DNA of 63,992 nt, counting the filler, from Stramenopiles sp. TOSAG23-3 (taxonomy: Eukaryota): assembly GCA_900128585.1 (NCBI GenBank). It is 17 parts of 17 records of this genome, joined end to end, with 100 filler letters (N's around TTAATTAATTAA, not from the genome) between each part and the next. Parts side by side here need not be neighbours in the genome. Positions count along the whole stretch, not along the records: positions 24,726 to 26,860 come from LT645040.1; 16 more parts are not named here. One strand, 5' to 3'. Positions 4,078 to 62,602 of this stretch are shown here, piece by piece. Position numbers and translations under genes: made by a program. A model generated the notes under the pieces. The model was given only the letters and a program-made list of their open reading frames with translations. It ran no database searches and was not told where the DNA came from. How positions within the stretch are numbered: position 1 is the first letter of the stretch; each line of letters starts with the position of its first letter.

Positions 4078-4577
4078 ACGTTCTGTTCGGGTTACTCCGC
4101 AGGATATTATTATTGGATTTTGTGTGCTAATTCTGACAGAGTTTCACAATTGAAGCATCATTGTTTGAAATATGGAAGATAAAGACAAATGGTAGACCCA
4201 AAAATACAAAAACAACAACTCTTCTTCTCTTGCTTCTTCTTTCTGTATAATACTTTGGTGGTTGTTTTATCTCCTTCCTCTCGTCGTCGTCTCCTCCTCC
4301 GTCCTCCTCATCAAAAAAAACAAAAAATAATAATATTGCGACTATATTTTGAAGAAAATATATAAGTTTATTACGGATGAAGCGACGTTGAGAGATAGGT
4401 ATTAGCATACAATACNNNNNNNNNNNNNNNNNNNNNNNNNNNNNNNNNNNNNNNNNNNNTTAATTAATTAANNNNNNNNNNNNNNNNNNNNNNNNNNNNN
4501 NNNNNNNNNNNNNNNCTGTGGTGCTTCAAGTCAATAATACGAAGAAGTGTTTAAGAAGAAGAAAGGGATGAATTTGT

Positions 4578-4579
<2 letters not shown>

Positions 4580-4617
<38 letters not shown>

Positions 4618-4618
4618 A
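4580..4618. repeat. (GAAA)n microsatellite
   Basis: About 9 tandem GAAA units upstream of the ankyrin-like gene. Confidence 0.9.
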
Positions 4619-6314: not shown

Positions 6315-6770
6315 TTCGCGTTTGGGTGCGTGTTGTTGTTGGAGCTGGTGGGCTGCCGCAGCGCAGCGTTTTCTCAGCTTGGAAAAAAAAAAACCTAATT
6401 CAGTTTTCCAGCTTGAAAGAACATTCGAGGTTCACATTCCTTCATGAACTGCGAACTTATCTTTGCTCTTGTGGGTTTACTAAATCGATATAAGTACCCT
6501 TTTTAGCAACAAAAAGATTAAAAACAAGAAAATTGGCTGTTATTTAAGTAATTAAATTTAGCTTCCTAATACCCTAATCCTAGCTTGATTCTGTAATTTT
6601 GTTTCGTTGTTGGTTGTCAATTGTCAATCACCGAGGGGATGATATAATTTCCAATGAATAATTTAAAGANNNNNNNNNNNNNNNNNNNNNNNNNNNNNNN
6701 NNNNNNNNNNNNNTTAATTAATTAANNNNNNNNNNNNNNNNNNNNNNNNNNNNNNNNNNNNNNNNNNNNT

Positions 6771-9629: not shown

Positions 9630-9851
9630 AAGTTAAGTCTGAGAAATACTTTTGATTCAAAAATTGAAACGGCAGGAGAGTCAAGTGTCAGACAGATGAT
9701 GTCTGTTGTAATTGTTGCGTTTTAATATTTTAAAAAAAAGTACGCGTAACTTCGGAATGATAGAATATTAATCTCTTTTACCAAAAAAAAAAATGCATAA
9801 TTTTTAAGTAAGCGTACGTATGATAACAAAAAGCAATAGAGTCAAAAAATA

Positions 9852-10173
9852 AAAGCGAAAAATTGGCTGTTAATTTAAGTAGTTAAAATTTATCGTCTTC
9901 ATATACTGCGAACTTATCTCTGCTCCTGAGATTTTACTAATCAATATACCCTTGTCACTTACTCTTAACTAAAACAAGAAAAATTGGCTGTTACTCTTAA
10001 CTATCATTCTCATGTGTACTCCATGCATGATCCGAATCGGTATGTCGATTTGCGTCGAAGTCAAAAGACCCGTAGTCAACTTCCTCATCCGATGTCTCAC
10101 TCGTAAATATGAACCTCAGTCGGTTCCTTGTGTGATTTTCCGAGCAGTGGCGTGAATGTTTTAAAGGTGCTCT
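9852..10173 (-). mobile_element. Family A T-tailed element, long 5'-truncated copy with nested 19-nt A insertion
   Basis: Homologous to 26268-26545. Retains ORF end RAPLK...DEEVDY...TDSDHAWSTHENDS* (10173-9997). Nested mini-copy 9972-9990 lies between TTACTCTTAACTA duplicates. Confidence 0.75.
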
Positions 10174-10230: not shown

Positions 10231-11169
10231 TCACTCCCCGACCTTTTTGCTTTGTGTAGAGTCACGAATGGGCTTCAAGAACGCCATGAGCCCAGTGCCC
10301 CCAGTCCCTTTGCCCCCTGCATTCTCACTCAGCTTTCGTTTCTTTGCGGGCTTACTTTCCCCGCTCCCAGCTTGGCCCTTTGCCGCCTTCTTTTGAGGAA
10401 CAATAATGTACCTAGCCACAAGGTTTATGTGACCGGACCGAAAATTCGCCAGAGAATCCAAGCATCGATTGTACCTCTGGCTTACTGCTCTTCTTTCGTG
10501 CCCATCGAGAACGTTTGTGACTAAGTCTTCAATGGAGAGCATCACTCCTTCCTTTCCATAGTCTCGCAAGTACAGAACGAACTCCCTGTGCTCTTTTGGC
10601 ATGTAAAATCGTTGCATTTCTTTCAAAAACCCTTCCGAAACTGGATTGTTGTGAGCCACGTCAAGCGCGGCATCAAGCACGGGAAAAATGGTCGATTGGG
10701 CAGCGCTGCCGCCATTAAATTTCTGTGGCCCAGAATATTTTTCGTACCCTTCGTAAATAACACCATTTGGCATTGCTGGATTCCCGGCAGTGCCCGCCAG
10801 AAACGGACGTACAAAGTTGTAAAACGCGCCAGGATCGCAACCGTCCGACATGCGGGAAATCGTTTCCGTCATCTTGTCTATTGACGACTCAATCTTGTCC
10901 AGCAAACCAAGCACGTGCGGAACCCAAAAGGAGTTGATCCGTCCACTGGCGGCATGTTCCTTTGCGATCGTTTTCAAAGCCATGCGAAGCATAAGGCACG
11001 GCATCAGGCCGCGTGCACCGTGCATTTCTACCTCAGCAGTCAGAAGAAAGAACCACTTTTCATCCTTACTGCCGAGAAAGTCGATGACTGTGTCTAAATT
11101 TGTGGCAGATATTTCCCCAGTTCGACTTAAACGCTTGTAGTTGTATAGGCAAATGGACGCGTGGATGAG
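10231..11169 (-). CDS. IDO: Indoleamine 2,3-dioxygenase (5'-partial)
   Basis: GGSAAQS, YMPKEHREF, FRSGHINLVARYI (heme-ligand His) and GTGGTGLMAFLK motifs. Confidence 0.92.
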   Translation of the reverse strand, partial: LIHASICLYNYKRLSRTGEISATNLDTVIDFLGSKDEKWFFLLTAEVEMHGARGLMPCLMLRMALKTIAKEHAASGRINSFWVPHVLGLLDKIESSIDKMTETISRMSDGCDPGAFYNFVRPFLAGTAGNPAMPNGVIYEGYEKYSGPQKFNGGSAAQSTIFPVLDAALDVAHNNPVSEGFLKEMQRFYMPKEHREFVLYLRDYGKEGVMLSIEDLVTNVLDGHERRAVSQRYNRCLDSLANFRSGHINLVARYIIVPQKKAAKGQAGSGESKPAKKRKLSENAGGKGTGGTGLMAFLKPIRDSTQSKKVGE

Positions 11170-15324: not shown

Positions 15325-15468
15325 AAAACAAGAAAATTGGCTGTTATTTTTGCGAACAAGAAAATATATAAAAAAGAAAAAAGATGGTGTCAGTTCAAGA
15401 ACAATATCTCCTCCTATTGCAGATCCTCCCCTAGTTCTGGTCAAGATTCCAATTGATTGGTCTTAAAA
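15325..15468 (-). mobile_element. Family B element (distinct body, family-A-type 3' tail)
   Basis: GTGTCAGTTCAAGAACAATATCTCCTCCTATTGCAGATCCTCCCC...CAAGATTCCAATTGATTGGTCTT is shared with 20360-20435 (rc) and 31295-31328. Confidence 0.65.
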
Positions 15469-15761
15469 GTACACAGCGGCATAAATGTTTTAAAGGGACT
15501 CGTTGTCTGTGGTACTGCTCAATGAAATAATAATCGGTATTGAGTTTGATCGTTTCCTGTTCGTATACACATACAGATGTAAGTGTACCAATATTTAAAA
15601 ACAAAAAATTGGCTGTTAATTAAGTAAATATTTAAAACAAAAAATTGGCTGTTATTTAAANNNNNNNNNNNNNNNNNNNNNNNNNNNNNNNNNNNNNNNN
15701 NNNNTTAATTAATTAANNNNNNNNNNNNNNNNNNNNNNNNNNNNNNNNNNNNNNNNNNNNC

Positions 15762-21194: not shown

Positions 21195-21282
21195 CTAATT
21201 AATTAAACGAGTTTGTCAAATTTAAAAATCGCATCTTAAGAAACCTTTTTTCATATATTTTATAATAACTTGTTCATTATTT

Positions 21283-21335
21283 CAGTTCGCAGTACATTAA
21301 TTTTAATTACTTAAATAACAGCCAATTTTCTTGTT
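21283..21335 (+). mobile_element. Family A insertion (53 nt) with 10-bp TSD
   Basis: TTCATTATTT at 21273-21282 and 21336-21345 flanks CAGTTCGCAGTACATTAATTTTAATTACTTAAATAACAGCCAATTTTCTTGTT. Confidence 0.75.
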
Positions 21336-21828
21336 TTCATTATTTATAATTGGACAAGTTAGTTCCCTTATTCCTACGTAGTATAAATATTGGAATTTAT
21401 TATCTATTACCTAACCAACGGAGTTCACATTTTATATAAATAGGAGACAAGCATAACATTGAAATAGCATTAAAAGAAGAGATGTTGATGATTCTTCCTT
21501 CCTCCTCCCTACTCGACGATGATGTTCAAATATTTTAATATACAAAAAAAGTCAATGAAATCCGTGCTCCCTGCTGTGTTCTTAAAAAATATTATTCCTC
21601 GTAAAAAAAAATACGACGAATACTCGTAATGATGATATTTTTTTTTATTAAATTCTTCCTCTGATGCCTATGTGTTGTATTATTATCGGTTGATGCCGTG
21701 TTTTTTTGACGTCTACAGATGTATTAATATTGTAGGCGGAATTCATACGTGCTTCGTCATTTTGTGCGATCGAATAATCAGTGTAGAAAATTGTCAAGTT
21801 AGATCTGGCGAAAATAGTAGGTTGCCTC

Positions 21829-24625: not shown

Positions 24626-24725
24626 NNNNNNNNNNNNNNNNNNNNNNNNNNNNNNNNNNNNNNNNNNNNTTAATTAATTAANNNNNNNNNNNNNNNNNNN
24701 NNNNNNNNNNNNNNNNNNNNNNNNN

Positions 24726-26158
24726 AGGCGGGCAAAATAAACGTCTTGGAAGCGAAGAGGAAGGAGCCGGAAACTAGTGGTGCTGGAAGGGCACCGCGGC
24801 CAAAAGGTTCAGTTGCAGAGGACGAAAGTGAATTCGGTTATATTGTTCCTGGGGAAGTGGAAGCGCGAGACGAAGAGAGACGGAAACCTGTGAAAGTAGA
24901 TCAGGGAGGCATGAGCGCAGTTGATACTCCCGAACGTGTCGTCCCAAGCTTGCACCCCGTCATCCGCCGAGGCAAAACGTGTGTAACTTGTGTAATTGAC
25001 GTCGAATGTTCAGACGCAACCAAAAAATGGTTAGGGAAACCAAAACACCCGTTTCACAAAACCACAGCTGTGGGCGAACTAACCCTAGTTTTTTCATTTC
25101 TAAACTTTGCTGTGGGCGATGTAATTTTTTGTTTTCTAGAATTTGACGAGATGAAGAAAGGCACATTAAGGCAAAGGCACATTGTTGGCAAATGGAAAAA
25201 GTTCAGCATCAAGAACCTGGACAGCGAAGCAAAGACGTTAACGTGCCGTGCGCAGGACCACCAACCCATCGTCATACCCTTAGCCTCCGCAGTGTACTTT
25301 GACCAATTTGCAGAGCTTGTGCGAATGCCCGCAACGGGCACGGAACCGACACACTTCATAGCCCACTGCGAATCCAAAGACAGGATTTTTCGGTACCAGC
25401 AGAACCTCAAAATGGACCGTGCCAAGTACAACGCGGGAGCATATGGGCGAGAGGAGGCCCCGCGAATGCGTATGGCATCGTTATCAAGACAGTCGAAGCA
25501 TACTTTTCAGCAAAAACCTGGAAATTCCACAAAACGATGCTGCAGTATTTACCTAGATGACTGCACGGCTGGGTACACGAAAATGCTCCTGTCGGGCAAA
25601 CAAGAGGCCGGCAGCGCAGAGACGGCCCACACTTCAGACGAACTGTACGTTCCAAACTTGGACCCCTTCGTGTGTTTCGAAATAAAACGTCAACATGAAC
25701 ACGTCCACGTTTTTGCAGCATCGTTCGGGAACCTACTCAAGGTCCTGCGACCCCAACCGAACGAATCGCAAAAAATCAACCCTCCGGTAGAGAATATAAC
25801 CTCCATATGGGCGGATTACTGCTGCACTGCTGACAACCCCACTGTTAAGCAAGATTTTACGTTTGTGTTTCGAACGCTTGTCACCCGGACAAACCCGAGC
25901 CTGTACGTCGGAGTCAACCTCGCAACTCGTGGCGGAGTGCACTTACGAGCGGGCGATCCCAAGAAAGCACAGGGAAAGAAGAAAGGCCTCGCGCAACAGG
26001 TTTTGCGCTCGAACGAATTGATCCACAAGTGGTCCTACAACAACTCGAAATATTTTTACCTTCGGCCAGTCCCGGATAGTTACGAATGTTATCAGGGGAA
26101 AGGGGGCGTGCATATGTACTCTCAAATATTTCAATTGGTTAGTGTTCTAAAATTTTAA
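24726..26158 (+). CDS. 5'-partial hypothetical protein, possible Rossmann methyltransferase-like C-terminal domain
   Basis: ~470 codons open. The C-terminal strand/helix pattern IYLDD...LYVPN...SIWADYCCT...YVGVNL is suggestive only. Confidence 0.6.
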
Positions 26159-26545
26159 AGCAGGACGAGATCCCAAACGGCACTTCAACGAATCCCACAC
26201 AACGACCCTCCTCCGACACTCCAACTCACAAATGACAATCCCTTAACTGATTTACATAGCAGACAACGAGCACCTCTAAAACAATTAAGCCGCTGCTTTG
26301 ACGATCACACAAGGAACGAGCCATCTACGAGTGGAACACCGGACGAAGAAGTTGATTATAGGTCATGTGGAAGCAGTGTTAATCTATCTACTGATTCAGA
26401 CCATAAATGGAGTACATTTGAGAATGATAGTCAATACTAAGTGACAAGGGTATGTCGATTAGTCAGACCAAAAGAACAAAGATAGATTTCAGTTCGCAGT
26501 ACATTAATTTCACTTACTTAAATAACAGCCAATTTTCTTGTTTTT
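26159..26545 (+). mobile_element. Longest family A copy: 94-codon ORF remnant + 3' UTR + T-tail
   Basis: Met-less open frame 26159-26440 (...RAPLKQ...DEEVDY...TDSDHKWSTFENDSQY*), then ~105 nt ending AATAACAGCCAATTTTCTTGTTTTT. The 5' boundary upstream of 26268 is inferred from the open frame only. Confidence 0.7.
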
Positions 26546-26557
26546 AAAAAAAGTAAG

Positions 26558-26748
26558 ATCATAAATGGAGTACATCTGAGAATGATAGTCAAGACTAAGT
26601 GGCAAGGGTATATCGATTAGTAAGACCAAAAGAGCAAAGATAAGTTCGCAGTTCATGAAGGAATGTTAACCTAGAATGTCTTAATCTAGATTTCAGTTCG
26701 CAGTACATTAATTTTAATTATTTAAATAATAGCCAATTTTCTTGTTTT
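26558..26748 (+). mobile_element. Second tandem family A copy (composite) with ~12-13-bp TSD
   Basis: T(A)7GTAAG at 26545-26557 and T(A)6GTAAG at 26749-26760 flank the copy. Confidence 0.7.
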
Positions 26749-27163
26749 TAAAAAAGTAAGCTAAGCTAAATTTAAAAAACATGAAGGAATGTAAACCTTT
26801 AATGGACAAAAGGAGCAGATTCATTTTCGCGGTACATGAGAAAGCTAAATTTTAATTACTNNNNNNNNNNNNNNNNNNNNNNNNNNNNNNNNNNNNNNNN
26901 NNNNTTAATTAATTAANNNNNNNNNNNNNNNNNNNNNNNNNNNNNNNNNNNNNNNNNNNNCAAGTTGAATAAGCACAGATAATAACGAGTGATTCAGCTC
27001 TTTCTCTTGTTTGTTTTGATTTATACACTATTTCTTCCTTTGGCTGTTCGTTTGCTTCGTTCTCGTTGACGATCGCTGCCCTTTTTTCAATTTATTGCAA
27101 AGGAGCTCGTTGTTATTTATTACGTTACCGATTGCTTGAAAGGAAGGCTTGCAGTTCGGCACC

Positions 27164-28588
27164 ATGTCAGAGACCTCTTCTCGTCCACAATCGCGGGCGC
27201 AGACTGCGCCGATCAGCACCGTTCCATCGAGTGCACGGTCGAAACTTAGGACCTCTCAGGGTATTCGAGGGGGTGGTGATAAGAAACTCATGAGGAGACG
27301 GGCCAGGGCCCAAGCCCAGCAGGCCTGGTTCGACCGGTACCGGCACATCCCAGGGGAGTACCAGTTCGAGGACTACCACGATCAGGAGGGGATGGGTGAA
27401 GGGTTCGTCACATGGTCGTGGAACAAAGAAATGAGGAGGGTGCACTGTGGTTTGATTCGAAACGCAAAGTCTTACGTGGTGGAGGACGTTGAAAAGCACG
27501 AAGTTCTTGCCGACAAACTGGCGATTTTATTTGACACAACCGAGGTTAGGAAACGGGAGCGCGTGCTCTGGGAACGAAAACTGCAGAAAGAAAATTTGCA
27601 CATGCTGAAGAATATCTCCAACATGCAGAAGGAGGTGACGGATATTGGGGAAACGTTGAATCCTGAGTGGAGAAAGAAGCAGGTGGAAAAGGCCCTAGAG
27701 CATACGAAACACCTGCGAATAGCGAGGCAAGTGGAGTTGGACAGCATGAACGCGGACAATCGCCAACTGCTGGAGTTTCTTTCCAAGGCCAAGCCGTACT
27801 ACAGCAACAAAGACCAGGAAAGCCACTGGAAACGGCACGTGCGGCTCCGAAAAGCGATGAGGAAAGTCATGCCCAAGAAGAAGAAGAAGAAGAAGAAGGC
27901 AAAACCGAGCCCGAACGATGTGTCGGACACGATGTTCACGCTGGACAAGGGAACGCCCCGGCTCCTTCCCATCGGGGCCCGCGGGAGGAGGGGGCGAACC
28001 CCTTCCGTACAAACGCGGGGAGAGGTTGTGCTGGCGAACATGTACCAGCACGCCTTTGCCAACGCTGGCCTGCCTGGCTCGACGGCGGGCGAGATAGTGA
28101 GCCGGGCCACAACGCCAGCCACCCGAAACGCTGGTCAAAGGGGACCTACGGCAACGCCCAGCCAGTCGGCCCTCGGGGCGCTCGGCATGAGTGCGTATTC
28201 GAACGCCCTCCGCCCGTCCAGCAGCGCAAAGGGGATGAGTGAGGCGCTACTAGACGGCCACTACGACGTAGGAGACGAGCAAAACATGCTGATGGCCCCG
28301 AAGCAGCTCATGATTGGGGGTCGCCACACGATGATGTCGGTGTTTCGAACGAGCAGCGGCGATGGGTCGATCAAATTCAAATGCGAAGACGTGGGCAGCG
28401 GGAACGTCCGGGCCGTCTACGTGCTACCGAGCGAGATCCGACGGGTGTGTGATTCCAACAGCGTGCTGTTCAACACAAAGTCGTCAAAATTGAACCGGTT
28501 CGAGCGCGTGGCCCTGCTGCTGGATCTGGAAGGGGCCTTTGATGGGAAACTGCGGAACATGAGAAAGGCCTACAACGAGCAAGGTTGA
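27164..28588 (+). CDS. CFAP97/hemingway (KIAA1430)-like domain protein
   Basis: KLQKENLHMLKNI...ELDSMNADNRQLLEFLSKAKPYYS...ESHWKRH resembles the CFAP97 domain. ATG at 27164. Confidence 0.6.
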   Translation: MSETSSRPQSRAQTAPISTVPSSARSKLRTSQGIRGGGDKKLMRRRARAQAQQAWFDRYRHIPGEYQFEDYHDQEGMGEGFVTWSWNKEMRRVHCGLIRNAKSYVVEDVEKHEVLADKLAILFDTTEVRKRERVLWERKLQKENLHMLKNISNMQKEVTDIGETLNPEWRKKQVEKALEHTKHLRIARQVELDSMNADNRQLLEFLSKAKPYYSNKDQESHWKRHVRLRKAMRKVMPKKKKKKKKAKPSPNDVSDTMFTLDKGTPRLLPIGARGRRGRTPSVQTRGEVVLANMYQHAFANAGLPGSTAGEIVSRATTPATRNAGQRGPTATPSQSALGALGMSAYSNALRPSSSAKGMSEALLDGHYDVGDEQNMLMAPKQLMIGGRHTMMSVFRTSSGDGSIKFKCEDVGSGNVRAVYVLPSEIRRVCDSNSVLFNTKSSKLNRFERVALLLDLEGAFDGKLRNMRKAYNEQG

Positions 28589-28659
28589 AATGCTTTAAAG
28601 TAGGCAACGGCGCCAAGATGCACTTTTTGTAAATATTAATTACGAAGTTAGTAACATTG

Positions 28660-28745
28660 ATTAGTAAACTCACAGGACAGAGATAAGTTCGCAGTACTAT
28701 GTTATGTGAATAACACTTAAACTAACAGCCAATTTTTTGTTTTTA
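28660..28745 (+). mobile_element. Diverged family A copy
   Basis: TTAGTAAACTCACAGG...GATAAGTTCGCAGTAC...TAACAGCCAATTTTTTGTTTTT. Confidence 0.6.
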
Positions 28746-28966
28746 GTTTTTTTATAAGACTCTCTGATCAATTTTCGCAGTACAGGAGGAAGATAAATTT
28801 TAATTACTTTACTTCCTTATAAATAGAACAGTCAACTTTTTCTCTTTTATCTAGACAAAACACTGCCACAAGCTAGGTCAGAAAACCCACCCGCCGGGAC
28901 GGTGCAAAAATAATATTGCGGCATATTTATTTTTAGTTTTTATTATACCAGTAAAAAAAAAGAATT

Positions 28967-29095
28967 AAAAAATAAATAAATTATATAGTATGTTTTAAGA
29001 CTCTCAAAAAAAAGAATTAAAAACAAGAAAATTGGCTGTTATTTAAGTAATTAAAATTAATGTACTGCGAACTGAAAACTGAAAACTGAAATCTA
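28967..29095 (-). mobile_element. Family C insertion (28967-29005, 13-bp TSD) abutting a family A copy (29019-29095)
   Basis: AAAAAAAAGAATT at 28954-28966 and 29006-29018. The A copy runs into the contig end. Confidence 0.7.
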
Positions 29096-29195: not shown

Positions 29196-29196
29196 T

Positions 29197-29257
<61 letters not shown>

Positions 29258-29410
29258 TTCTTCTTCTTCTTCTTTCTTCTTCTTTCTTCTTCTTCTTCTT
29301 CTTCTTCTTCTTTCTTTTTTCTTTTTCTTCTTTTTCTTCTTCTTCTTCTTCTTCTTCTTTCTTTTCTTTTTCTTCTTCTTCTTCTTCTTTCTTCTTCTTC
29401 TTTTCTTTTC
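29196..29410. repeat. (TTTC)n/(TTC)n pyrimidine microsatellite tract
   Basis: Over 200 nt of T/C only. Confidence 0.9.
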
Positions 29411-29833
29411 TTGGCTTTTGCTCTTGGCTCTTTGGCTTCCTTGAAATTCTTGAATCTCGAATCTCCTCTCGAACCGTTAGAGAATTTCAAGATTAATATA
29501 AAATAATTATTTATAATATAATAATAATTATTGGCATATAATAGTTTACATAGTGATGATGATATATAACCAGTAAGAGAAGTAATAAACACAATAATAA
29601 TCTTCTTCTTGATGAGATTTATTATATTTTGATTTTTTTGCTGGTTGTTACTACGTTACCGGTACTACTAACAACCGACTACCGGTAGGAACTTTTGTTT
29701 GTTTGCTGGGTTCTGTGTTCCTCATCGTTTTAAATAATGCAGCATGCCGTTATAAAGACATTTTCCTTCTTTTTTGTTTGTTACGAATACTTATAAGGAT
29801 TCATTTGTTGAGAGTTGAATTTCGAACAATCCG

Positions 29834-31588: not shown

Positions 31589-31769
31589 ATCTGTTAGCGG
31601 TATATGAAAGCAAAGTAAAAATAGACCTAGTACGTAATAAGCTAAATATTAGATAGGAAAATCTGTTCGGACAACACAAATTCAACAAAAAAAGGTAAAT
31701 AGCAGTAGAAACAGTTCTGAATGGCCAGATTAATTTTTTAATGTTAACATCAATTTAGCACTGACATAA

Positions 31770-33561
31770 ATTGATAGCGTTGTGCAGCATTGGATTATAC
31801 GTTAAGGAAGGAACATTTGGGCTTCATCAATCGATCAACCGTTACGAAAGAGGAGGAAGAAAAAATGCGATGGTGATGATGTATAGCTCTCAGGAATATC
31901 CGCATGGCTGTGAAACTATTTTAAGAGGTGCTATCTTGATGTAAACATATTAAACACGGAAAATAATGAAATGATACTATATGCTGTAGCAATGTAAATG
32001 GAAAATGAATAGCTTCACTTTGATAATTAAGGCTGGTACCTTTGAAATAATATTTGTTATATATACATTTAATATACAAATATAAAATTAAAATTACCAC
32101 ACATTGCTTTCTTTTTACTAAAACAATGGTGATTGTAGTTAAATAGTATCACATTGGCAGTGATAATTGATTAGGAAAAATAAGATTTTTATATTCTTTT
32201 TTTTAATAAATAAAAAATGTGACAAACCTTTATGCTCTGCAGGTATTAACTGAATGAATACTTTTTTTCGCGCAATTACATATTATTAAGGATTCTATTG
32301 ATAATGTTGTATCTTTTGCGTATTTTTGGAACATTAAGATATGTTTGGCGGTACTACAAGTATTACAATTAAACCGTATATAGAACCCCACACAAACATT
32401 GGTACAAAAAAGGCGTATTCATGATTTTACATAGGCAAATTAGCAGGAATGGACAGCCGAGGCCTCGTTTGTCCACTGTATGCTAATAATGGGTGTACTT
32501 GTCGACGATCGGACCTTGGGAAAACGACAAATCGATGTACATAGGCGGAAGCCGGAAGCCGTCGATTGTTTGCTAAAACCATATTCCATCGCAAGAAGGT
32601 GCTCCTTAATATTGATTGACTGTACAAAAAAAAAAGTTGATAAAAAAAATATTTATGTGTACTGTATTTTAAATTATTATTTATAATAAAATATTGATCT
32701 AATGAATAATGATTGATAAACAAACAATCTTATGGAAGATAAACCTTTACGTTGCGTTGCGTTGCACTCAGGATGATAACTAAAGTCAAGAATTTAAGTA
32801 AAAAAACAACAACCGTTATTAAGGATAGGTCCCTATACTTCTTAACATATTCTGGCATGAGTGTAGAGTCGGATGGGGCATAGCTAAGGTAGGTGCCTGC
32901 GTCGGTGTGCTTATAATCTCTACCAAGCACAAACATCACATGTCGCTGTTCAAACTGATTCTCATCCGCCGAAGCATATTTTAAAAAATAAATACATGTA
33001 TATATATTTCAAGATGCATACTAATTTTAAGTACAATTTTTAATACATTATTGCATTAATGTACGATAAAAGGTACTTCTATTTGTACTTCATTGTATTC
33101 TATTTTGTTTTGATAGATGGTGATATAAACATAATACATACACAGACCATTGATTTAGCATTTGAACTTCTAATTATCGACAAATAGGTAAATTTTAGAA
33201 ATAGGCCCGACCCTTCAGGCATCCCGAAGGGTCATAACAGTAGAAACAGTTGTTTACCGCCAGATGAATTTTAGAGTTTTTATTTTATTTTTTATTTTAT
33301 TTTATAACATCAAAATAGCACTGACCTAAATTGATAGCGTTGTGCAGCATTGGATTATATGTTAAGGCAAATGGAGTAAAATATAATGATTCAATGAGTC
33401 AATAAAATAGATTGATGATATATTTGTTTTTTACAAATATGTAGAGAGAGGATCTGCAACAACAACGATGATTGAGAAAAAGAAGAAGAGGATTTTCTTC
33501 TTTACTTTACCCAAATGTTCCTTCCTTAACGTATAATCCAATGCTGCACAACGCTATCAAT
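31770..33561. mobile_element. Probable non-autonomous long-TIR DNA element
   Basis: 31770-31821 is the perfect reverse complement of 33510-33561 (52 bp, cut by the contig end). An internal direct copy at ~33238-33367 matches ~31702-31808. Confidence 0.5.
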
Positions 33562-39196: not shown

Positions 39197-39528
39197 AAAC
39201 CTTCTTCCATATATATATGGGGTGCCGGTACTGGCATATAATACTTGTTCTCTTTTAGTGCATGATTCTTTATTTGTGGGTTATATAAATAAAGAAAATG
39301 TGACCAAAAAATATTTTTTTTAAATAATAATTGTGTTTTTTACCTATTTTTTATTTGTTACCAAGGTATTACAGTACTGTACTTAATCAAATTTTTATAT
39401 TTTTTTCTGGTCGTTTGTATTTATTTTGATACTTATAATACTAAATTATTTACCTATCAAAAAAATTGGATGGTTCTGAATCCATTGAGGAAGAAAAGAA
39501 AAAGAAAAAGAAAAAGAAAAAGAAACGA

Positions 39529-39608
<80 letters not shown>

Positions 39609-39610
39609 AA
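39529..39610. repeat. (GAAA)n microsatellite preceded by (GAAAA/GAAAAA)n
   Basis: About 20 tandem GAAA units. Confidence 0.92.
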
Positions 39611-40006
39611 AAAAGAAAGAAGAAAAAATGATGATTTTATAATAATAATAATAGGAATTTCATATTTCCCAGTGTTATTTACCTGTTACTATTCCAATTA
39701 TCCACAATCCTCCCTCCTCTGCTCTCCTCTTCACAGCACAGACAAATGTATAATTTATTTTAACCACAAAAAAAAAAATTAGTAGTAGCTCGTTAATAAA
39801 AATGTACTATATATTATAAAAGTTTCCTTTCAGTCAATGTCAGATGTATCCAAAAGAGTTCAAAAAGGAAAGGTTGTGAAGCATACTTGGTCTATCTTTC
39901 TTATCTCAGGCACCTTGACAAATCAACAGTTTGAAACCTTTTCTCTACCTGCCGTTAGGATTGGCTAGCTGGACCCTGAATTTTCGTTTGGAAGAAGTAC
40001 ACTGAT

Positions 40007-42139
40007 ATGGCAAATTTTGCAGCAGAAGGAGCGGCGCGTCCGCTCCTCCCTTTGTACCATCTTGTTTCGTTAGACACTTACTCGTCCTTTGAGGATCCAA
40101 AAGACTATGTGCCTCCCACGCATGATAAAGACGGCTTTATCCATTTAACTGAAGACACAAAGGACTTGTTGGACGTCGCTAACCAGTTCTATAAAGGAGT
40201 TCCTGGAGAGTTTCTTTTGCTCGAGTTGGACCCACAGCGTCTTATTGGGAACGTCGTTTTTGAACCAGCAGCCCCCGTTGGAAACACGTCCCCGTCCTCA
40301 TCTCAACAGGAGAAACTGTTCCCTCATTTGTACGGGAAAATATGCAAAGAGTCGATCATATCGAAAATTAAAGTATTGCGCAACTCAGCCTCCGGGGAAT
40401 TTTTGGAAATATCGTACCCAGTGCTTTCGCTTCTGGGCGGCCGAGTGCTGCTTGGAACCAACGCTGGCGCCAACGACTTGTTGACCGTAAAAAAGCACAA
40501 CATTTCTGCGTTTGTCTGCGTCGCTCCAGAGGGTGCTTCGGTGTTATCTAGTCTGGAATTTGGGGAAAGAATGTCTGCCAACGTTTCACCGGACAATATG
40601 TACATTGAGGAAATCCTTTCGTTCATGGAGAACGCAGACGAAAAGAAGGTTAATGTGCTCGTTTATTCGGCCTTTGGGCGTGAACGGTGCGTGGCGATTG
40701 CAGTGGCGTATTTGATGTACAAGTCGAAGATGACCTTTAAGGATGCGTTGCAACTGATAAGCACTCAGTGGCCCAGAGCGAAACTTGGCAGCGCCATCGA
40801 AGAAACTCTCGTCAAACTCGAAAATACGGATTCCCCGATGCAGCCCGGCGAGAACGAACCGAGCGCGGAAGTGCTGACTGCGAACGACGTGCAGTCGGTG
40901 GTCTACCTGAATGAGAATGCCAACTTGGAGAGCGACGAGGATGATGCAGACGAATCGAACGGTACAGACGACGTAGATAACCTGAAGACCATTGATGAAT
41001 CGGCCGAAGATGCGAAGGGGGTGGTCGATATGTCTTCAAGCAAATTTACGTTTCACGGGGAATCAGTTTACGCGATAGCTGCTGCGTTCAAAAGTGCAAA
41101 CGCCGGGGAGCAGGAGGCGGGAAGCGCCGCTTCCAGCGGGCGAGAGCTAATATTGCTTAGTGGAGGCGGCGATGATGTTGGGTATGTTTGGAAACCAGAC
41201 TTGGAGGCCTTGGCGGTGGACACAGTGCCCATGGAACTCAAAGGACACACTGACTCTGTAGCGTCCGTGTCGCTGAGCTGCGACGGAGGGCTGGCGGCGA
41301 CGGGATCGTTGGATGGGACGGTCATGATATGGGACACCAACAAAGGGACCATGTCGGCCAAATTAGAGGGTCCTGGAGAAGACATTGAATGGATAAACTG
41401 GCACCCCAAAGGAGCTGTTGTTTTGGCAGGGTCGACCGATTCGACGGTTTGGATGTGGACTGCGACAGGGCGATGCATGCAAGTGTTCTCAGGACACGAA
41501 GATGCCGTAACTTGTGGTCAATTTTTGCCAAACGGGAAAGGAGTTGTCACTGGCTGTGGCGATGGCAGTGCAAAAATATGGGCTCCGAAATCGGGAAAAT
41601 GCAGGCACACGTTTGACAGCAAAAAGGGTGGCCAATGGCATACTCGAGGCAGTGCTATCGTTCAACTGGCTGTTAGCAACGCGAGTGACCTGCTCCTTAC
41701 TGGTAGCATTGATGGCACTGCACGGCTAGCGCACATTCAAAACAAAAAAATTTTAGGTACGCTCCCGCATCGACGGGAAGGGTCTTTGCTCGGGCATACT
41801 GTGGAAGCAGTAGATTTTTCTACAATTTTGCCCTGGTGTGTCACTGGGGGCTCTGCTGGGCTGGTTAAGGTTTGGGATTTGTCCACGCTTGCAACCCGCC
41901 ATGAGTTCAAACACGATGCTGGCGTCATTAAAGCAAAATTTGTGGACAGTCATGCTCAGATTGTTGTTACCTGTTCCGTCGATCAAAGTATACGAATATG
42001 GGATGCACGAACGGGAAATGCAGTTCGGAAACTGACCGGGCACACCGACATAGTGCTAGATTTTGCGGTTGCAGATAAATCAATTGTATCTTGTGGTGAT
42101 GATGGGGTAGTACGTTTGTTTAAAAACTGTTTGGCATAA
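40007..42139 (+). CDS. Fusion: DUF952 + inactive DSP domain + AAMP/SQT1-like WD40 propeller
   Basis: DGFIHLT...ANQFY...FPHLYG (DUF952); VLVYSAFGRER...AYLM (DSP, Cys lost); SGGGDD, GHTDSV, IEWINWHPKGAVVLAGSTDSTVWMW (AAMP/Sqt1). One uninterrupted 710-aa ORF. Confidence 0.88.
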   Translation: MANFAAEGAARPLLPLYHLVSLDTYSSFEDPKDYVPPTHDKDGFIHLTEDTKDLLDVANQFYKGVPGEFLLLELDPQRLIGNVVFEPAAPVGNTSPSSSQQEKLFPHLYGKICKESIISKIKVLRNSASGEFLEISYPVLSLLGGRVLLGTNAGANDLLTVKKHNISAFVCVAPEGASVLSSLEFGERMSANVSPDNMYIEEILSFMENADEKKVNVLVYSAFGRERCVAIAVAYLMYKSKMTFKDALQLISTQWPRAKLGSAIEETLVKLENTDSPMQPGENEPSAEVLTANDVQSVVYLNENANLESDEDDADESNGTDDVDNLKTIDESAEDAKGVVDMSSSKFTFHGESVYAIAAAFKSANAGEQEAGSAASSGRELILLSGGGDDVGYVWKPDLEALAVDTVPMELKGHTDSVASVSLSCDGGLAATGSLDGTVMIWDTNKGTMSAKLEGPGEDIEWINWHPKGAVVLAGSTDSTVWMWTATGRCMQVFSGHEDAVTCGQFLPNGKGVVTGCGDGSAKIWAPKSGKCRHTFDSKKGGQWHTRGSAIVQLAVSNASDLLLTGSIDGTARLAHIQNKKILGTLPHRREGSLLGHTVEAVDFSTILPWCVTGGSAGLVKVWDLSTLATRHEFKHDAGVIKAKFVDSHAQIVVTCSVDQSIRIWDARTGNAVRKLTGHTDIVLDFAVADKSIVSCGDDGVVRLFKNCLA

Positions 42140-42230
42140 ACGAAATGGAGATCCTGGGGGGGAGGGGATTAAATAATTTTTTTATGGTAAAATTAAACGT
42201 ATACATTACATTCATCTCCATTATTTTATT

Positions 42231-42254
42231 ATAACAGCCAATTTTCTTGTTTTT
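42231..42254 (+). mobile_element. Family A 3'-end micro-copy
   Basis: ATAACAGCCAATTTTCTTGTTTTT in a convergent spacer; no clear TSD. Confidence 0.6.
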
Positions 42255-42689
42255 AAGTGCCTAAAATTGCAGACAATAAATTTTGTTGTTGCGAAGTACC
42301 ACGTAACCAGTAAACAGCGGCTCGCTACACCAATCTAAATTAAAAAAAGAGAAAACAGAGAGAGGCTTTCGTCGCATGCTTCTCTTCCTCTGCTGCATCG
42401 TATAGGTCTTGGGCTTTTTGTGTAATCGCACATGGCCATGGATCTTCAGATTTGCAGCAGCAGCAGCGCACACCACGGTCGCCAATGACGCGCCAACTTT
42501 TTCTTGTTACCGTGATGTGCAGAAGATGAATTAGCCCATACATATTACTCTCTGCTGGCTATATCTAAAAATATTTTTAAAAAACTAATTATATATCATA
42601 GTATGTTCTTAAAATATTAATATTATAGTCCAGTTGTTTTTTAATTTTAAAAAAATAAAAATCTCTGTCTATGCATACTTACTCTCAAC

Positions 42690-49531: not shown

Positions 49532-49568
49532 GGAGAGTCTTAAAACATACTATATATTTTGGTTTTTT
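49532..49568 (+). mobile_element. Family C copy
   Basis: GGAGAGTCTTAAAACATACTATATATTTTGGTTTTTT between convergent genes, with an imperfect TTAAAAG(G)AG duplication. Confidence 0.6.
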
Positions 49569-53044: not shown

Positions 53045-53783
53045 ACTTACTGCCGGGGATCTCGTGTGAAGGGTTTAACTTGTTGCACAAAAATAGTTTG
53101 AATGCCTTCAATATGGAAATTAATGTATGCTTTTGTTTAAGAATTATTCTTTCTGCACACGTTGAATAAAAATTTCTAATTGCATCTATCATTTCAGAAC
53201 AGAAACGGAGAAGAAAGCTTTTCATGAAATGCGTTCCTCGTTGTCGTTTTCTTTTTTTTCTTTCTTCTTTTTCTTCTTCTTCTTCTTTTCTTCGCGCAAA
53301 TCATAATAATAATAATAATAGTCTAATAAAAATAAAATCAAGTTTTATTCAATGTTGTGTTCCTTGTAGAGATTCTTAGAAAATATTTTTTTTTGATTGA
53401 TGGAGGAGAGGAGGACGACGGCGGCATTGTGCGTGTGTTCGTTTCTTTCTTTTTTTTATTTTTATTTAATTCTTGATACTATTTACCTTATAAAAATAAA
53501 TAAATTATTGACTCACCCAAAAAAGTGTACAACACCTTCCTTTTGTAAACTAACAAAAGCAAAAGAAGAAGAAGAAAATAAAAACTTGGAAATTTAAAAT
53601 GTAAATAATATGTTGTAAAATAAAACTTTGCTTCATCAGAGACTACGTATCATCGAGAAGAAGAAGAAGAAGAAATAGAATAGAATAGAATAGACGACTA
53701 CGGTAGCTAAAAGTCGTCTAGTTTTAAAATAGACGACGAATATATTAAAATAGAATAGGAATAGAATAGGAATAGAATTCACC

Positions 53784-53861
53784 CAGAAGAAAGAAGAAAG
53801 AAGAAAGAAGAAAGAAGAAAGAAGAAAGAAGAAAGAAGAAAGAAGAAAGAAGAAAGAAGAA
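53784..53861. repeat. (AGAAGAA)n heptamer repeat
   Basis: About 11 tandem units in a divergent spacer. Confidence 0.9.
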
Positions 53862-54519
53862 TTTTTAATATTTTAGTATTATATTACGGTATCGTACCAG
53901 GTACTTCGAACAGCTAACGTTCACTTCTTCTTCATGCGTTTCTTCTGATAAAATTAAATAATTTTATTTAAAGATTTTTTATTTTTCTAGACGACCTCCT
54001 CGTAGAACCGACTTATAATTATTTTTTGTATTCTTTTTTCCTATAATAGTCTTACTGTAAGAATACAAAAAAAGAAATATTTCTTTTTTTTTGATGATGA
54101 AAATGTAACCGAAGTGGAGAAGGCCCTTCCCCCTTCTTCTCTTCTCTTCTTCTTTTCTAATATAATAATAATACATTATACCTAAAATAATAACAAAAAT
54201 TCGCAAAAAATAATAATATTTTTACTATCGGTTTGTTTTTGCTTTATCATGCTGTGCTTATGTTAGTTGAAGAAGAGTTACGATGAATGATGATGATGGG
54301 CAAAAAAAAAAAGGGGGAAGTAGTACGTAGGTAGTAGAAGAAAGAAGAAACTTTATTTTCAGAAAAAACACAGGTGTTATTATAATTGTTTCATTCCAAT
54401 TCAGCAATTATACGTGCATTCAATTAATTATACATCAAAACAAAGTAAATACTCTTTTTAAACAGCTGGGCTCTTTTAATTAGATATTCTCTAACTGTGA
54501 CCGGAGCGGTTAAAAGATT

Positions 54520-57117: not shown

Positions 57118-57279
57118 AATTTAAAAAAATTATATTACATAAATATATCACGGTCAGGACGACGAGAGAGAACGTACGAAGTAACTGATATTAATTGTTT
57201 AGTGTGTTCTTACTTCAGTTTAAAAACAAAATATTGGCTGTGTACTTAATCTTAACTTATGTAGAAACTCTTTTTGTAC

Positions 57280-58465
57280 TTATATTTGATCGTCTGACAA
57301 GTTTGTTCGTATACCGTAACGACCGGCAAGTCTTCCTGTCTTGTAAAAGGTGACAACTCCATCATTCTCACGAGAGAAATGACAGTTCTCGCCGTGGGCG
57401 GCAAAANNNNNNNNNNNNNNNNNNNNNNNNNNNNNNNNNNNNNNNNNNNNNNNNNNNNNNNNNNNNNNNNNNNNNNNNNNNNNNNNNNNNNNNNNNNNNN
57501 NNNNNNNTGACAACTCCATCATTCTCACGAGAGAAATGACAGTTCTCGCCGTGGGCGGCAAAAAGTTCAGTTGCAATACTCTTCAAGGTTGTCTCACTCT
57601 TGCCATCACAAATAAAATCAAATGTATTTTTTCGGGATCGAGAATTCGACGGGTTTTTCCTGCTTTTGCTTCGTGGAGTTTTCTTTGAAGGGTTTTTTTT
57701 CGGTGTCGACGCTCTGCTCTTTTTCCTCTTTTTCGATGTCGGCGCTCTGCTCTTTTTCGGTGTCGGCGCTCTGCTCTTTTTTGGTGCCGGCGCGATGCCC
57801 TTTTTGTTGTACCTTGGCGTTCGTTCTGCCGATTCAACCCACATCATAAAAAGGTAGTTTATAACAAGCACCACAGCAAAGAATGGATCGAACTGGAGAA
57901 GGTTCCTCATGGCCACGATTGTCATTATGGAACCAATGTATTGCGGGTCTGATATACCTAAATTATATGGGAATCCATTTACCCACGGCACCTGCTCGCC
58001 GAAACGAACCCCGTAGTACGTTCCGGTGGTTCCTAGTGCGGAGTACACCCCTGCATTCAGTGCTTGCCCAGCTATCAGCAAGCAAACGTCCGACAGTGTG
58101 GTGAAAACAAAAAATTCGACTTCGTGGGTATGCAATAGCTTGTACGTATCATCCGTCATGAATTGGTTCCAGATAGATGCGGCATAAGATGGAGCGGACA
58201 CATTTCCTGCTAATAAAATAGTCCCAAAGAGCACGATTTTCAGACCATGGGCTACGTGGCTCATGAGTTTCGATGGTGTCCAACTCGTTCTTGCTGCAAT
58301 CTCACACCAGGAACCGGGAAACTGCCACAACCAAAAGTAGTAAATCGATGGCAACGAAAGCAGCAAAACATGTAGAACATTGATAGACCCTTGTTCAGTT
58401 CGTAAACCTGATACAAGTGGGGATACATAGTGTTCTTTTAACATCGAAATAAATTCTTGAATCAT
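57280..58465 (-). CDS. Phospholipid N-methyltransferase (PEMT/plant PLMT-like) with basic C-terminal tail; spans a false N gap
   Basis: GQALNAGVYSALGTTGTYYGVRFG..VPWVNGFPY....DPQYIGS. 57351-57406 duplicates 57508-57563 across the N run, so the ORF continues to TAA at 57280. Confidence 0.85.
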
Positions 58466-60459: not shown

Positions 60460-60585
60460 TTTTCTACGCGCGCTGAATGTCTTAAGACGTGTGGTCTTAA
60501 ATATTGCTGTTGTATAAAATTGGTAATTCTTATAATTTTTACATAAAAAGAAATGTAAACGACATACTCAAAATATATATAAGAA

Positions 60586-60638
60586 ATAACATACTATATA
60601 ATTTGTTTTTTAGAAATAACAGCCAATTTTCTTGTTTT
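60586..60638 (+). mobile_element. Family A micro-copy with nested family C micro-copy
   Basis: Outer TSD TATATAAGAA (60576-60585, 60639-60648). Inner TSD AGAAATAACA (60582-60591, 60612-60621) around TACTATATAATTTGTTTTTT. Confidence 0.7.
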
Positions 60639-60777
60639 TATATAAGAATTCTCAATCTTACGTAAGTAACATATCTTGTTTCTTTACGAAAAGTGCCAAA
60701 AAGTGTGTGCAAAATATGCGGGGCTTCTCCCGAAGCAAAAAGGTGGTCTCCGATTGATCTTTAACAATATACGGACT

Positions 60778-61961: not shown

Positions 61962-62602
61962 ACCCACCCCAACGCTTGAAAAATTTCAAATACAAAAAGA
62001 AATTGTCGTCTTGGAGTTCTACAAAGTCTAGAGAAGAATTCCGAAAAAAGTTGGGTTGATTTTTTTCTCCAGTATCCCTGTAGATTGGTGGTCTATGAAA
62101 TCATGTATTTTGAGAAGACATAAATGTTTCTGGTATTTTTGGTAATAAGTGAATCATTATTTTTTATTATTGGGAAGAATCCAATTTCTGAATTTTTTTG
62201 ATGAGGACTAATAATAATAATTAAATTATAATAATAAATCGAAAGAGATGGAGGTTTTAGTGAGAAGATGATGAATATTTTAAATTATTTATTTTTACTT
62301 CTTCCTTTTTTTTTGCAACTCCTCCTTCCTAAAAAAATATGAATAGTCTGTATACAACTATACAGCATGTAGAATCTTCTCAAAGTGGACAATATAATAG
62401 TTAATAGTCTAATAAACAACTTTATTATTTTATTACCCAAGTTGGGTACTACGGTATCAGAATTATTATTTCGTTCCATAGTATTAATAGCTATTACCGG
62501 TATACACACACTACCAGGTTTACATTCCTTCATGAACTGCGAACTTATCTTTAAAATGTAAGGCTTAAGAATCTTTAGAATTACTTCGTAAAAAAAATTA
62601 TG

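Follow-up and report, generated by a model that had tools for sequence, protein, structure and literature searches.

How does an open reading frame (ORF) come to begin directly behind the stop codon of a host gene, and where does its relative on another contig originate? This question is raised by positions 26159-26545 of a 63,992-base stretch of DNA from Stramenopiles sp. TOSAG23-3 (assembly GCA_900128585.1), which is referred to here as the window and consists of 17 concatenated contigs rather than one chromosome stretch. The original prediction read the two frames as the 3′ ends of two diverged, autonomous retroelement subfamilies under coding constraint. The analysis makes it very likely that they are the 3′ ends of dead, 5′-truncated copies of a retrotransposon of the class without long terminal repeats (non-LTR) and of the long interspersed nuclear element (LINE) type. 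Such copies represent two subfamilies and lie in short spacers downstream of host genes. The assignment to the non-LTR class is held with high confidence; the host appears to be a gene-dense marine eukaryote, and the element family seems to be undescribed.

The parent reading frame and its evolution

The frames at 26267-26440 (+) and 9997-10173 (-) translate exactly as had been predicted, and they belong to independent copies, one on the plus strand of contig 12 (24726-26860) and the other on the minus strand of contig 5 (9023-11169). A single indel of 9 nt separates their coding parts. The pair is identical at 118 of 165 aligned bases (71.5%) and differs at 47, with the same residue at 33 of 55 aligned codons. 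The synonymous pairs listed for the DEEVDY and TDSDH motifs are all present, and 10 of the 32 differing codons are synonymous overall. The ratio of nonsynonymous to synonymous substitution rates (dN/dS), calculated by the Nei–Gojobori method (NG86), is 0.35 in the claimed frame versus 1.15 and 0.46 in the other two, both of which are riddled with stops; simulations matched the amino-acid identity of the pair in 42 of 5000 cases. The contig 12 frame is open already from 26159, which gives 93 codons, and the contig 5 frame stops two codons early through a CAA-to-TAA change relative to its subfamily, which ends in ...ENDSQD and a stop. Taken alone, the window pair gives an ambiguous coding signal, and the decisive support comes from loci outside the window.

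These loci are reached with a profile built from the two window peptides, which was searched against a library of 1.84 billion proteins and against metagenome contigs. The library contains 118 matching protein fragments, every one of at most 198 aa. The metagenome contigs hold 519 pattern matches, 81 of which encode a relative of the peptide and correspond to 73 distinct loci. In-frame extension of the matches gives many different starts and one common end, and a few of them run far upstream (402, 225 and 195 codons). The longer copies read through a region of about 280 aa with protein character, and this region as a query leads to the proteins P0121 (744 aa), P0122 (776 aa) and P0123 (851 aa). 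The C-terminus of P0121 is exactly the tail of locus L004. The N-terminal region of P0123 matches P0121 (54% identity, E = 7e-49) and also P0124, which starts with ...AAFADDLTIV and ends in a ...TGAALVL stretch that P0121 carries near its own start. Through the same N-terminal part of P0123, a protein of 1,087 aa (P0125) is reached, containing ...DAKNAFNT..., ...QGTQQGDPIG... and ...AYADDLAI.... The NAFN, QGDPIG and Y/FADD motifs correspond to palm motifs A, B and C in reverse transcriptases (RTs) of the LINE type. Residues 5-177 of P0125 align to the Pfam RVT_1 region of P0126 (BLASTP, 30% identity, E = 5e-15), the family profile matches the same region by hhalign (96.5%, E = 1e-9), and in a language-model atlas the N-terminal 420 residues neighbour RVT_1-bearing clusters (score 0.96; 24 of 30 hits).

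The direct connection between these motifs and the tail is provided by L074, a contig of 4.1 kb in which a single frame runs through 1,191 codons without interruption and is not closed at the 5′ edge. The frame contains, in order, RT motifs (QGTQQGDPIG, AFADDL), GGMG, a linker of about 380 aa, a Cys/His cluster and a conserved region of about 250 aa. This region is followed by a fast-evolving Ser/Asp/Pro-rich stretch and by the tail, ...DRQRAPKQQISRC...SEISDEEVDYGS...SSWSAL and the stop. Past the stop codon there is a 3′ untranslated region (UTR) of about 115 nt, and then the terminus ...TTAATTACTTAAATAACAGCCAATTTTCTTGTTTTT. Both window tails can be aligned with that of L074; the six sequences compared, in which identity to L074 drops as low as 35%, all keep P, C, T, S, DEEVDY and W-S unchanged. 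RT motifs and tail thus stand in one unbroken frame, and therefore the parent is an RT-encoding non-LTR retrotransposon. The reading of the peptides as 3′ ends of a retroelement ORF is confirmed in this way, and the upstream walk to the parent ORF, which finds an RT, disfavours an ordinary host gene without one. The predicted sense strand and the order of ORF, 3′ UTR of about 105-115 nt and short oligo-T prove correct from the L074 3′ end and the UTR alignment.

L074 (CALGTL010000157.1), which consists almost wholly of LINE ORF, was assigned to a bin that carries the label of an uncultured Dehalococcoidia metagenome-assembled genome, and is evidently mis-binned eukaryotic DNA. Beyond its terminus, at L074:3725-4101, a long near-perfect inverted repeat (...GTGTGTGAACTTTTTTTAATTAAAAAACTAGCAGGGAGTTAGTGTTACA ... 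TGTAACACTAACTCCCTGCTAGTTTTTTAATTAAAAAAAAGTTCACACAC...) was noticed by eye, which looks like a miniature inverted-repeat transposable element (MITE) or a foldback element.

The evolution of the ORF was examined with the intact L074 frame as the reference and in-frame stretches of other copies as segments. In the structured region (L074 residues 779-1024) dN/dS is below 1 in 16/16 segments, with a median of 0.28 (range 0.12-0.62), and the three codon positions contribute 397/361/589 differences. For the Ser-rich linker the median is 0.67, with 10 of 13 segments below 1. The tail reaches a median of 0.80 (24 of 38 segments below 1), and its differences (816/728/686) are without a third-position excess. 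Selection, purifying in the structured region, maintains the ORF overall, whereas the tail forms an extension that evolves fast, is probably disordered and keeps two short conserved motifs. The predicted coding constraint therefore stands for the structured region and not for the tail itself; dN/dS near 1 across many copies, which the original prediction had named as evidence to the contrary, is found in part for the tail and not for the structured region.

The last ~58 codons are open in one frame in 21 of 75 copies examined (19 unique sequences). Eighteen of these frame-intact tails were analysed, L047 being left out as near-identical to L044, and their median pairwise dN/dS is 0.63 (151 pairs). 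Synonymous changes make up 19 of 68 shared variants and 29 of 99 private variants, where the neutral expectation is 0.21-0.27. In the islands RAPLK, DEEVDYG, TDSDH, WST and ENDS the synonymous share, 23/57, exceeds the expectation (p = 0.003), and in the other 36 columns, with 25/110, it does not. The persistence of DEEVDY and W-S in the most divergent tails gives independent support for the islands, and only such small islands (DEEVDY, W-S) look to be under constraint within the tail. The end branches of the tree are short (median 0.026), and the nearest relative of the contig 12 copy is 94% identical to it. The window frames are thus open because the copies are young and derived from an ORF, not because the tail peptide is conserved. 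The assignment to two different subfamilies holds, as shown by well-supported clades and by comparison of nearest relatives. The contig 12 copy falls within a 16-row clade (support 100/98). The contig 5 copy is not in the tree, since a nested insertion splits its match; its nearest relatives, L013, L020 (86%) and L058 (95.5% over 112 nt), belong to the other major clade.

Several results weigh against this account of the parent ORF and its constraint. Pfam RVT_1 gives no direct match at E ≤ 1 on P0125 or L074, both of which begin inside the RT. The fetched loci contain just the last ~1.5 kb of the element. None of the recovered loci carries the 5′ end of the ORF, all ORFs starting inside the RT, so that the autonomy claimed for the subfamilies is only likely. 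Sequence searches of solved structures return just two matches, to an unrelated monooxygenase at E = 1. The codon alignments derived from tblastn lean slightly to low dN/dS, the island columns were picked for conservation, which makes their p value partly circular, and in a near-neutral tail the conservation of the frame adds little beyond shared ancestry. Further searches gave the following outcome: tblastn of the RT, linker and Cys/His parts finds no matches in the window and the 73 loci, a search with P0125 finds no related loci in genome contigs or viral contigs, and the family alignment finds none in viral contigs. For the tails and for ORFs of 195-1,191 aa, Pfam recognises nothing more than weak zinc-finger noise, and NCBIfam gives no family.

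Termini, insertion and relation to host genes

The mode of insertion can be read from the ends of the copies. When 121 copies are chained on a 1,449-nt reference (L014:8948-10396), 88 of the 110 3′ ends uncut by a contig end fall in its last 50 nt. The 5′ starts are scattered over 1.45 kb, 85 of 118 lying in the last ~350 nt. The large ORF upstream of the L014 copy encodes a host PI3-kinase and does not belong to the element. The terminus is carried by 98 unique sites in the window and the related loci, and the flanks diverge immediately after it. The T-run behind ...CTTG has 0-8 nt, most often 5 (33 of 75 termini), and the base following it is A in at least 67 of the 75. The 3′ UTRs are 105-170 nt long and occur with several bodies, namely a short A type (105 nt, contig 12), a long A type, a B type (L074) and a C type, and all of them converge on an almost invariant last ~40 nt in the UTR alignment. 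The C type, presumably another subfamily, has the terminus and the CATGAAGGAATGTAAACC module in common with the long A-type UTRs; it was observed (...GGACAAAAGGAGCAGATTCATTTTCGCGGTACATGAGAAAGCTAAATTTTAATTACT...) at 26781-26860 (+) and 28773-28808 (+).

A scan of 26100-26860 with Rfam gives no match at E ≤ 1, and the predicted RNA fold of the 3′ UTR is no more stable than shuffled sequences (z = +1.05). The literature search found no published mention of the terminus or of the DEEVDYGS motif, and none of the papers listed for LINEs with an oligo-T or T-rich tail describes such an element in its title or in the opening of its abstract. A reading of the terminus as a spliced leader or a poly(A) signal was dropped, since in L074 it is the end of the element's own 3′ UTR.

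Target-site duplications (TSDs) were assessed by the longest match between 5′ and 3′ flanks in 53 copies with both junctions, against 200 mismatched-pair controls; two row pairs among the 53 lack independence, since they stem from the two sister assemblies. Matches at the junctions average 6.0 nt, versus 4.11 ± 0.24 in the controls, the maximum of which is 4.73 (0/200 reach 6.0), and 11 of 53 matches have 9-15 nt, for example TTTTAATTCACACTC. The TSDs are variable, about 5-15 nt long (11, 13 and 10 nt in window examples), and mostly begin with T, then A. Comparison of the T-run across both junctions assigns 2-5 T's to the element and the others to the target. The predicted T-tail is thus real, though short, and it merges with the duplication. 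The flanks differ among the copies, with no site specificity; common to them are only the T-run followed by A and the proximity to gene 3′ ends. The common 3′ end, the scattered 5′ ends and the TSDs together form the signature of target-primed reverse transcription. By this mechanism, the terminal U-run of the element RNA may pair with an A-run at the nick, and copying would often abort, at times after about 20 nt, leaving 3′ fragments in the ORF frame.

The locus under study illustrates such truncation. Copy 1 of contig 12 consists of a 5′-truncated ORF remnant at 26160-26440 (+), of which 93 codons are read from 26159 to the stop at 26438-26440, and of a 105-nt 3′ UTR of the short form at 26441-26545 (+), with the terminus AACAGCCAATTTTCTTG at 26524-26540 and the oligo-T at 26541-26545. 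Its ORF remnant corresponds to residues 643-744 of P0121 (tblastn, 66% identity, E = 3e-30), and homology to longer copies begins at GCAGGACGAG, one base past the TAA of the host ORF (26156-26158). Comparison of the junctions gives TTTTAAA as a candidate 7-nt TSD at 26153-26159 (+), with its partner at 26542-26548; it is short, AT-rich and weak alone, and it includes the host stop codon. Directly behind lies the shorter copy 2 (26558-26749, +), detected as a direct repeat (92%), which comprises the last ~14 codons, a long-form 3′ UTR and the terminus. It is bracketed by the 11-nt TSD AAAAAAGTAAG at 26547-26557 and 26750-26760 and is 94.5% identical to L041:1151-1350.

Evidence for recent activity comes from a related case. 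Locus L048 carries at 10765-11057 a 291-nt insertion with a 10-nt TSD (ACAAATTATT), which is absent from the near-identical locus L038 (~1743) of a sister assembly. The insertion belongs to a different family, ending ...TATATAATCAG-T7, and its presence in one locus and absence from the other mark it as recent and polymorphic, which indicates that the retroposition of T-tailed elements is recent in the lineage. This second retroposon family, with the end ...GAGAGTCTTAAAACATACTATATAATCAG followed by a T-run, was also seen in the window at 28981-29005 (-) and 49533-49557 (+).

The position of the copies behind host genes raises the alternative that the tails serve the host, either by extending the upstream proteins at the C-terminus when the stop codon is read through, or as an alternative last exon common to several genes. 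In the window, each tail continues the phase of its upstream ORF past one stop codon, with the frame open over the gap, and GT...AG-like strings can be found by eye ahead of both. On a wider scale the phase is lost: among 31 tail-bearing copies at most 600 nt downstream of a host ORF on the same strand, 6 are in phase, 15 are shifted to phase +1 and another 10 to phase +2, an in-phase share below the chance level of one third, and the two in-phase window cases are therefore coincidence. The IDO ORF (Pfam E = 6e-70) reaches position 411 of 412 of its profile, thus ending where the profile ends, and splicing out the candidate 23-nt intron of contig 12 would disrupt the frame. Of 83 unique termini at most 1 kb from a non-element ORF of at least 200 codons, 74 have a gene 3′ end as the nearest feature, 7 a 5′ end, and 2 lie inside an ORF; 47 of those near 3′ ends are antisense and 27 sense. 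The sense-strand bias hinted at by the window was rejected by this wider count. Accumulation in 3′ flanks without strand bias agrees less well with a function in host transcripts than with insertion tolerance, or with T/A-rich DNA being preferred. In four marine metatranscriptome runs compared with contig 12, many element-like pieces diverge exactly at the terminus into other loci, and two RNA-library contigs of ~2.09 kb end in a tail fragment; no contig of the four runs, in which DNA carry-over is possible and strand, ends and level are not shown, joins the contig 12 host ORF to the element. With the near-neutral evolution of the tail added, host use is extremely unlikely.

A different origin would be that the copies are processed-pseudogene fragments of a multi-copy host gene without an RT, mobilised by the machinery of another element. 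Most of the ORF is without a Pfam family, and no RT sequence lies beside the tail in the fetched loci. The joining of RT motifs and tail in one frame on one contig (L074) opposes it, as do P0124 and P0125, which independently link FADD/YADD to the region upstream of the tail, and the nearly invariant, dedicated 3′ module kept by several subfamilies, typical of LINEs that recognise their own RNA; such an origin is very unlikely. The idea that the frames are open by chance, within a dispersed repeat that codes for nothing, such as a short interspersed nuclear element (SINE) or a MITE, deserves next to no credence. It could draw on the flat distribution of differences over codon positions in the window pair (13/16/18) and on the many copies that are just 20-80 nt of non-coding terminus. 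The same sequence, however, ends intact ORFs of 744-1,191 codons, the longer copies continue in frame into the region with low dN/dS, and stops abound in both alternative frames of the window pair.

Such fragments carry an annotation risk. As they lie right behind stop codons, in some cases in frame, an annotator may take them for C-terminal extensions, for products of readthrough or for new small ORFs. They also split short-read assemblies of this organism into gene-sized contigs.

Further copies and the setting of the window

The remaining copies in the window are mostly fragments. Contig 12 ends in a third fragment (26781-26860, +) with a C-type 3′ UTR (...TTTCGCGGTACATGAGAAAGCTAAATTTTAATTACT), recognised from the sequence and by pattern search and incomplete because the contig stops there. 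Upstream of the contig 12 copies, the host ORF at 24746-26158 (+) has 470-476 codons and is without a Pfam family. The contig 5 copy (9851-10173, -) is 5′-truncated and belongs to the other subfamily, with the ORF remnant at 10173-10000, the premature stop at 9999-9997, a 3′ UTR and the terminus at 9871-9851, and it lies 57 nt downstream of the stop of the IDO gene. It contains a nested micro-insertion (9959-10003, -), visible in the sequence and as an alignment gap. Here 19 nt of element terminus (9990-9972) are bracketed by a 13-nt duplication, TAGTTAAGAGTAA (10003-9991 and 9971-9959).

On contig 7, blastn and alignment detect a partial copy (15453-15575, -) that shares some of the region upstream of RAPLK (...HRQRVPLKHLCRC) before its sequence departs from it, and the terminus scan adds three more minus-strand termini at 15634-15653, 15598-15617 and 15326-15345. 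Tandem or nested termini just 25-45 nt apart are common, for example at 15598-15653 of the window and at L056:10214-10258. The copy on contig 6 (11389-11530, -) retains the last ~9 codons and the 3′ UTR and is 88% identical to copy 1 of contig 12 by blastn. Contig 3 holds copies with a B-type 3′ UTR, as in L074, at 6421-6640 (-), with a terminus at 6522-6541 (blastn, classification, UTR alignment). Contig 10 carries a terminal fragment of 55-77 nt at 21261-21337 (+) with the 10-nt TSD TTCATTATTT, found as a direct repeat and in the TSD table. On contig 13, three terminal fragments (28659-28745, +; 28766-28808, +; 29017-29080, -) were identified by blastn and the terminus scan just downstream of an ORF at 27149-28588. 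The 28-kb contig has by blastn a terminal fragment at 42204-42256 (+), 65 nt downstream of a WD40 gene (40007-42139), and further fragments at 57205-57249 (-), 60548-60672 (+) and 62516-62573 (-).

The make-up of the window itself accounts for part of its apparent repeats. Sixteen of its contigs, 2,133-2,158 nt long, are ordered by length, and the seventeenth is the first 28 kb of a longer contig. They are separated by N44-TTAATTAATTAA-N44 spacers (e.g., 24626-24725 and 26861-26960), and a "119-nt repeat" with a ~2.2-kb period reported by a repeat finder arises because this spacer recurs. The spacers also surface as dozens of inverted repeats in repeat finders. Several contig ends of the window fall inside an element terminus, among them the last bases of contig 7 and the first of contig 17. 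According to the ORF list and Pfam, the genes are those of a eukaryote and for the most part without interruption, including IDO, COG2, a GAF-phosphodiesterase, and WD40, LRR and WW proteins. The final 3.3 kb of the window are 98-99.8% identical to the public-assembly locus L041, and therefore the related loci come from essentially the same organism and from marine-sample relatives. A ciliate-type genetic code, suggested by in-frame stops, was ruled out, as the long ORFs stop where their homologues stop under the standard code.

Other repeats were noted along the window. The end of contig 1 (1743-2158) contains a 126-nt unit three times in tandem, 85-100% identical, past an ORF ending at 1311. 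An exact 56-nt direct repeat (57351-57406 and 57508-57563), 157 nt apart, lies at the 3′ end of a minus-strand ORF (57368-58465). A 63-nt direct repeat (31745-31807 and 33305-33367; 94% identical) in the AT-rich contig 15 (GC 0.31) is unrelated to the LINE family. Intergenic microsatellites are frequent, with extended runs of (GAA)n/(GAAA)n and of their complements (TTC)n/(TTTC)n at 4553-4618, 29196-29420, 39480-39630 and 53770-53870.

The putative nuclease and comparison with known systems

The type of endonuclease used by the element is approached through the region behind the RT. In R2-type elements, according to the part of the source consulted (PMC4838377), the RT is followed by a CCHC motif and then by a PD-(D/E)xK-like nuclease, with RH in helix 1, PD...D/E in strands 2 and 3, K..KY in helix 2 and RG.W past strand 4. 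All members of the present family have a C-x-C...C...H-x3-C-K-x-H-G cluster, which falls in one register with the CCHC of P0126 in a weak local alignment (z = 0.9-3.3). It is followed in order by PHN/PHK, by (Q)PD in P0125 or ADG elsewhere, by (W/F)DVHF, which holds the second candidate Asp, by K..KY and by LFGMSLSGAF. The K..KY motif is found in L074, P0121, P0122 and P0123, and P0125 has K..GY in its place. By eye, P0126 has a clearer series of CCHC, RH, D...D and K..RY. An AlphaFold model of P0121 from a five-row alignment is unreliable (mean predicted local distance difference test score, pLDDT, of 33), and its order of helices and strands is compatible with such a fold. The atlas search of the post-RT region returns only unnamed clusters, the nearest named one being zf-RVT at 0.86, below the lead threshold.

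This motif order suggests a restriction-like endonuclease (RLE). The assignment is weakened by the lack of a literal RH and RG.W, in place of which PHN/PHK and SGAF are found, by the two candidate catalytic Asp residues standing ~55 residues apart, and by the nature of the motifs, which were read by eye and with weak local alignments (z = 0.9-3.3) in a region that hhalign stopped short of. It is possible, and is put forward tentatively, that the same retroelement is instead of the apurinic/apyrimidinic endonuclease (APE) type, as in L1, RTE or CR1, with the Cys/His cluster and the downstream region as a non-catalytic C-terminal domain. Non-specific insertion at T-run/A-rich DNA and TSDs of 5-15 nt are typical of APE LINEs, the non-literal motifs and the atypical Asp spacing agree with it, and the 5′ part of the ORF, the site of any APE domain, lies outside the recovered sequence. 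The order of the post-RT motifs, with K..KY in four proteins and PD in P0125, instead parallels RLE LINEs (PMC4838377, as far as consulted), and the relative P0126 shows the series more clearly. The RLE clades named in the consulted part of PMC4640811 are CRE, R2, R4, NeSL and HERO, plus Dualen. Most are target-specific there, and the HERO clade includes many non-specific families, so that free insertion also occurs among RLE elements. Between the RLE type on the one hand and the APE type or something else on the other, the balance is about even.

A wider proposal is speculative and rather unlikely. It would see in the family an undescribed RLE LINE clade with a long post-RT region, a disordered acidic tail and an oligo-U RNA end recognised via the ~40-nt module. 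Such a clade would have colonised the 3′ flanks of many of the genes in a compact protist genome, and its fragments would be co-transcribed in 3′ UTRs and possibly co-opted in mRNA 3′-end formation or stability, as in SIDER elements. In any case, knowledge of LINEs gains a lineage from a marine protist that has been little sampled, with an oligo-T end, a shared 3′ module and a long, unassigned post-RT region. If the nuclease is restriction-like and not site-specific, the range of the early-branching RLE group would be widened. No general principle is altered, as this is a well-understood kind of element.

With R2 and other RLE LINEs the element shares, within the parts of the sources consulted (PMC4838377, PMC4640811), a single long ORF with an RT, a Cys/His motif and a nuclease-like region with K..KY, as well as a dedicated 3′ UTR end without need of poly(A). 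It differs from them in a much longer post-RT part, some 1,000 residues between FADD and the L074 stop, and in PHN for RH, SGAF for RG.W and the ~55-residue Asp spacing; where R2 ends, the element continues past the nuclease-like region in a Ser/Asp/Pro-rich extension of ~250 aa. Its insertions are without site specificity and have TSDs of 5-15 nt, and some HERO families are likewise described as non-specific in the consulted part of PMC4640811. The element resembles the "stringent" LINEs and their SINE partners, such as eel UnaL2 (the concept is that of PMC3747384), in that several of its subfamilies with differing UTR bodies retain one almost invariant 3′ end of ~40 nt, a pattern to be expected were recognition of this end a requirement of the RT, and in that very short terminal fragments are mobilised as well. 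Unlike them, it has no predicted stable 3′ stem-loop and carries a short oligo-T instead of a poly(A) or microsatellite tail. A partner SINE with a small-RNA head did not come to light, and no tRNA- or 5S-like head is seen in the aligned copies, for which no ARAGORN scan was made; the copies in the window follow the last part of a long ORF collinearly, which sets them apart from SINEs.

The signature of L1-type LINEs includes heavy 5′ truncation, one 3′ end for all copies, TSDs of variable length, a T/A-rich nick preference and possible pairing between the tail and the target. The element has these features in common with L1, but its polarity is reversed, as the RNA ends in U (T in the DNA) and the TSD usually begins with T, then A. 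It also has no poly(A), and its ORFs, which start inside the RT, give no evidence of an APE domain. A parallel in genomic distribution is provided by the SIDER elements of Leishmania, degenerate retroposon fragments that, in the consulted part of PMC2943621, pile up in gene 3′ flanks and UTRs of a compact protist genome. The present fragments are distributed in the same manner, but their orientation is not sense-biased (27 versus 47), the copies are young, and the family has intact ORFs.

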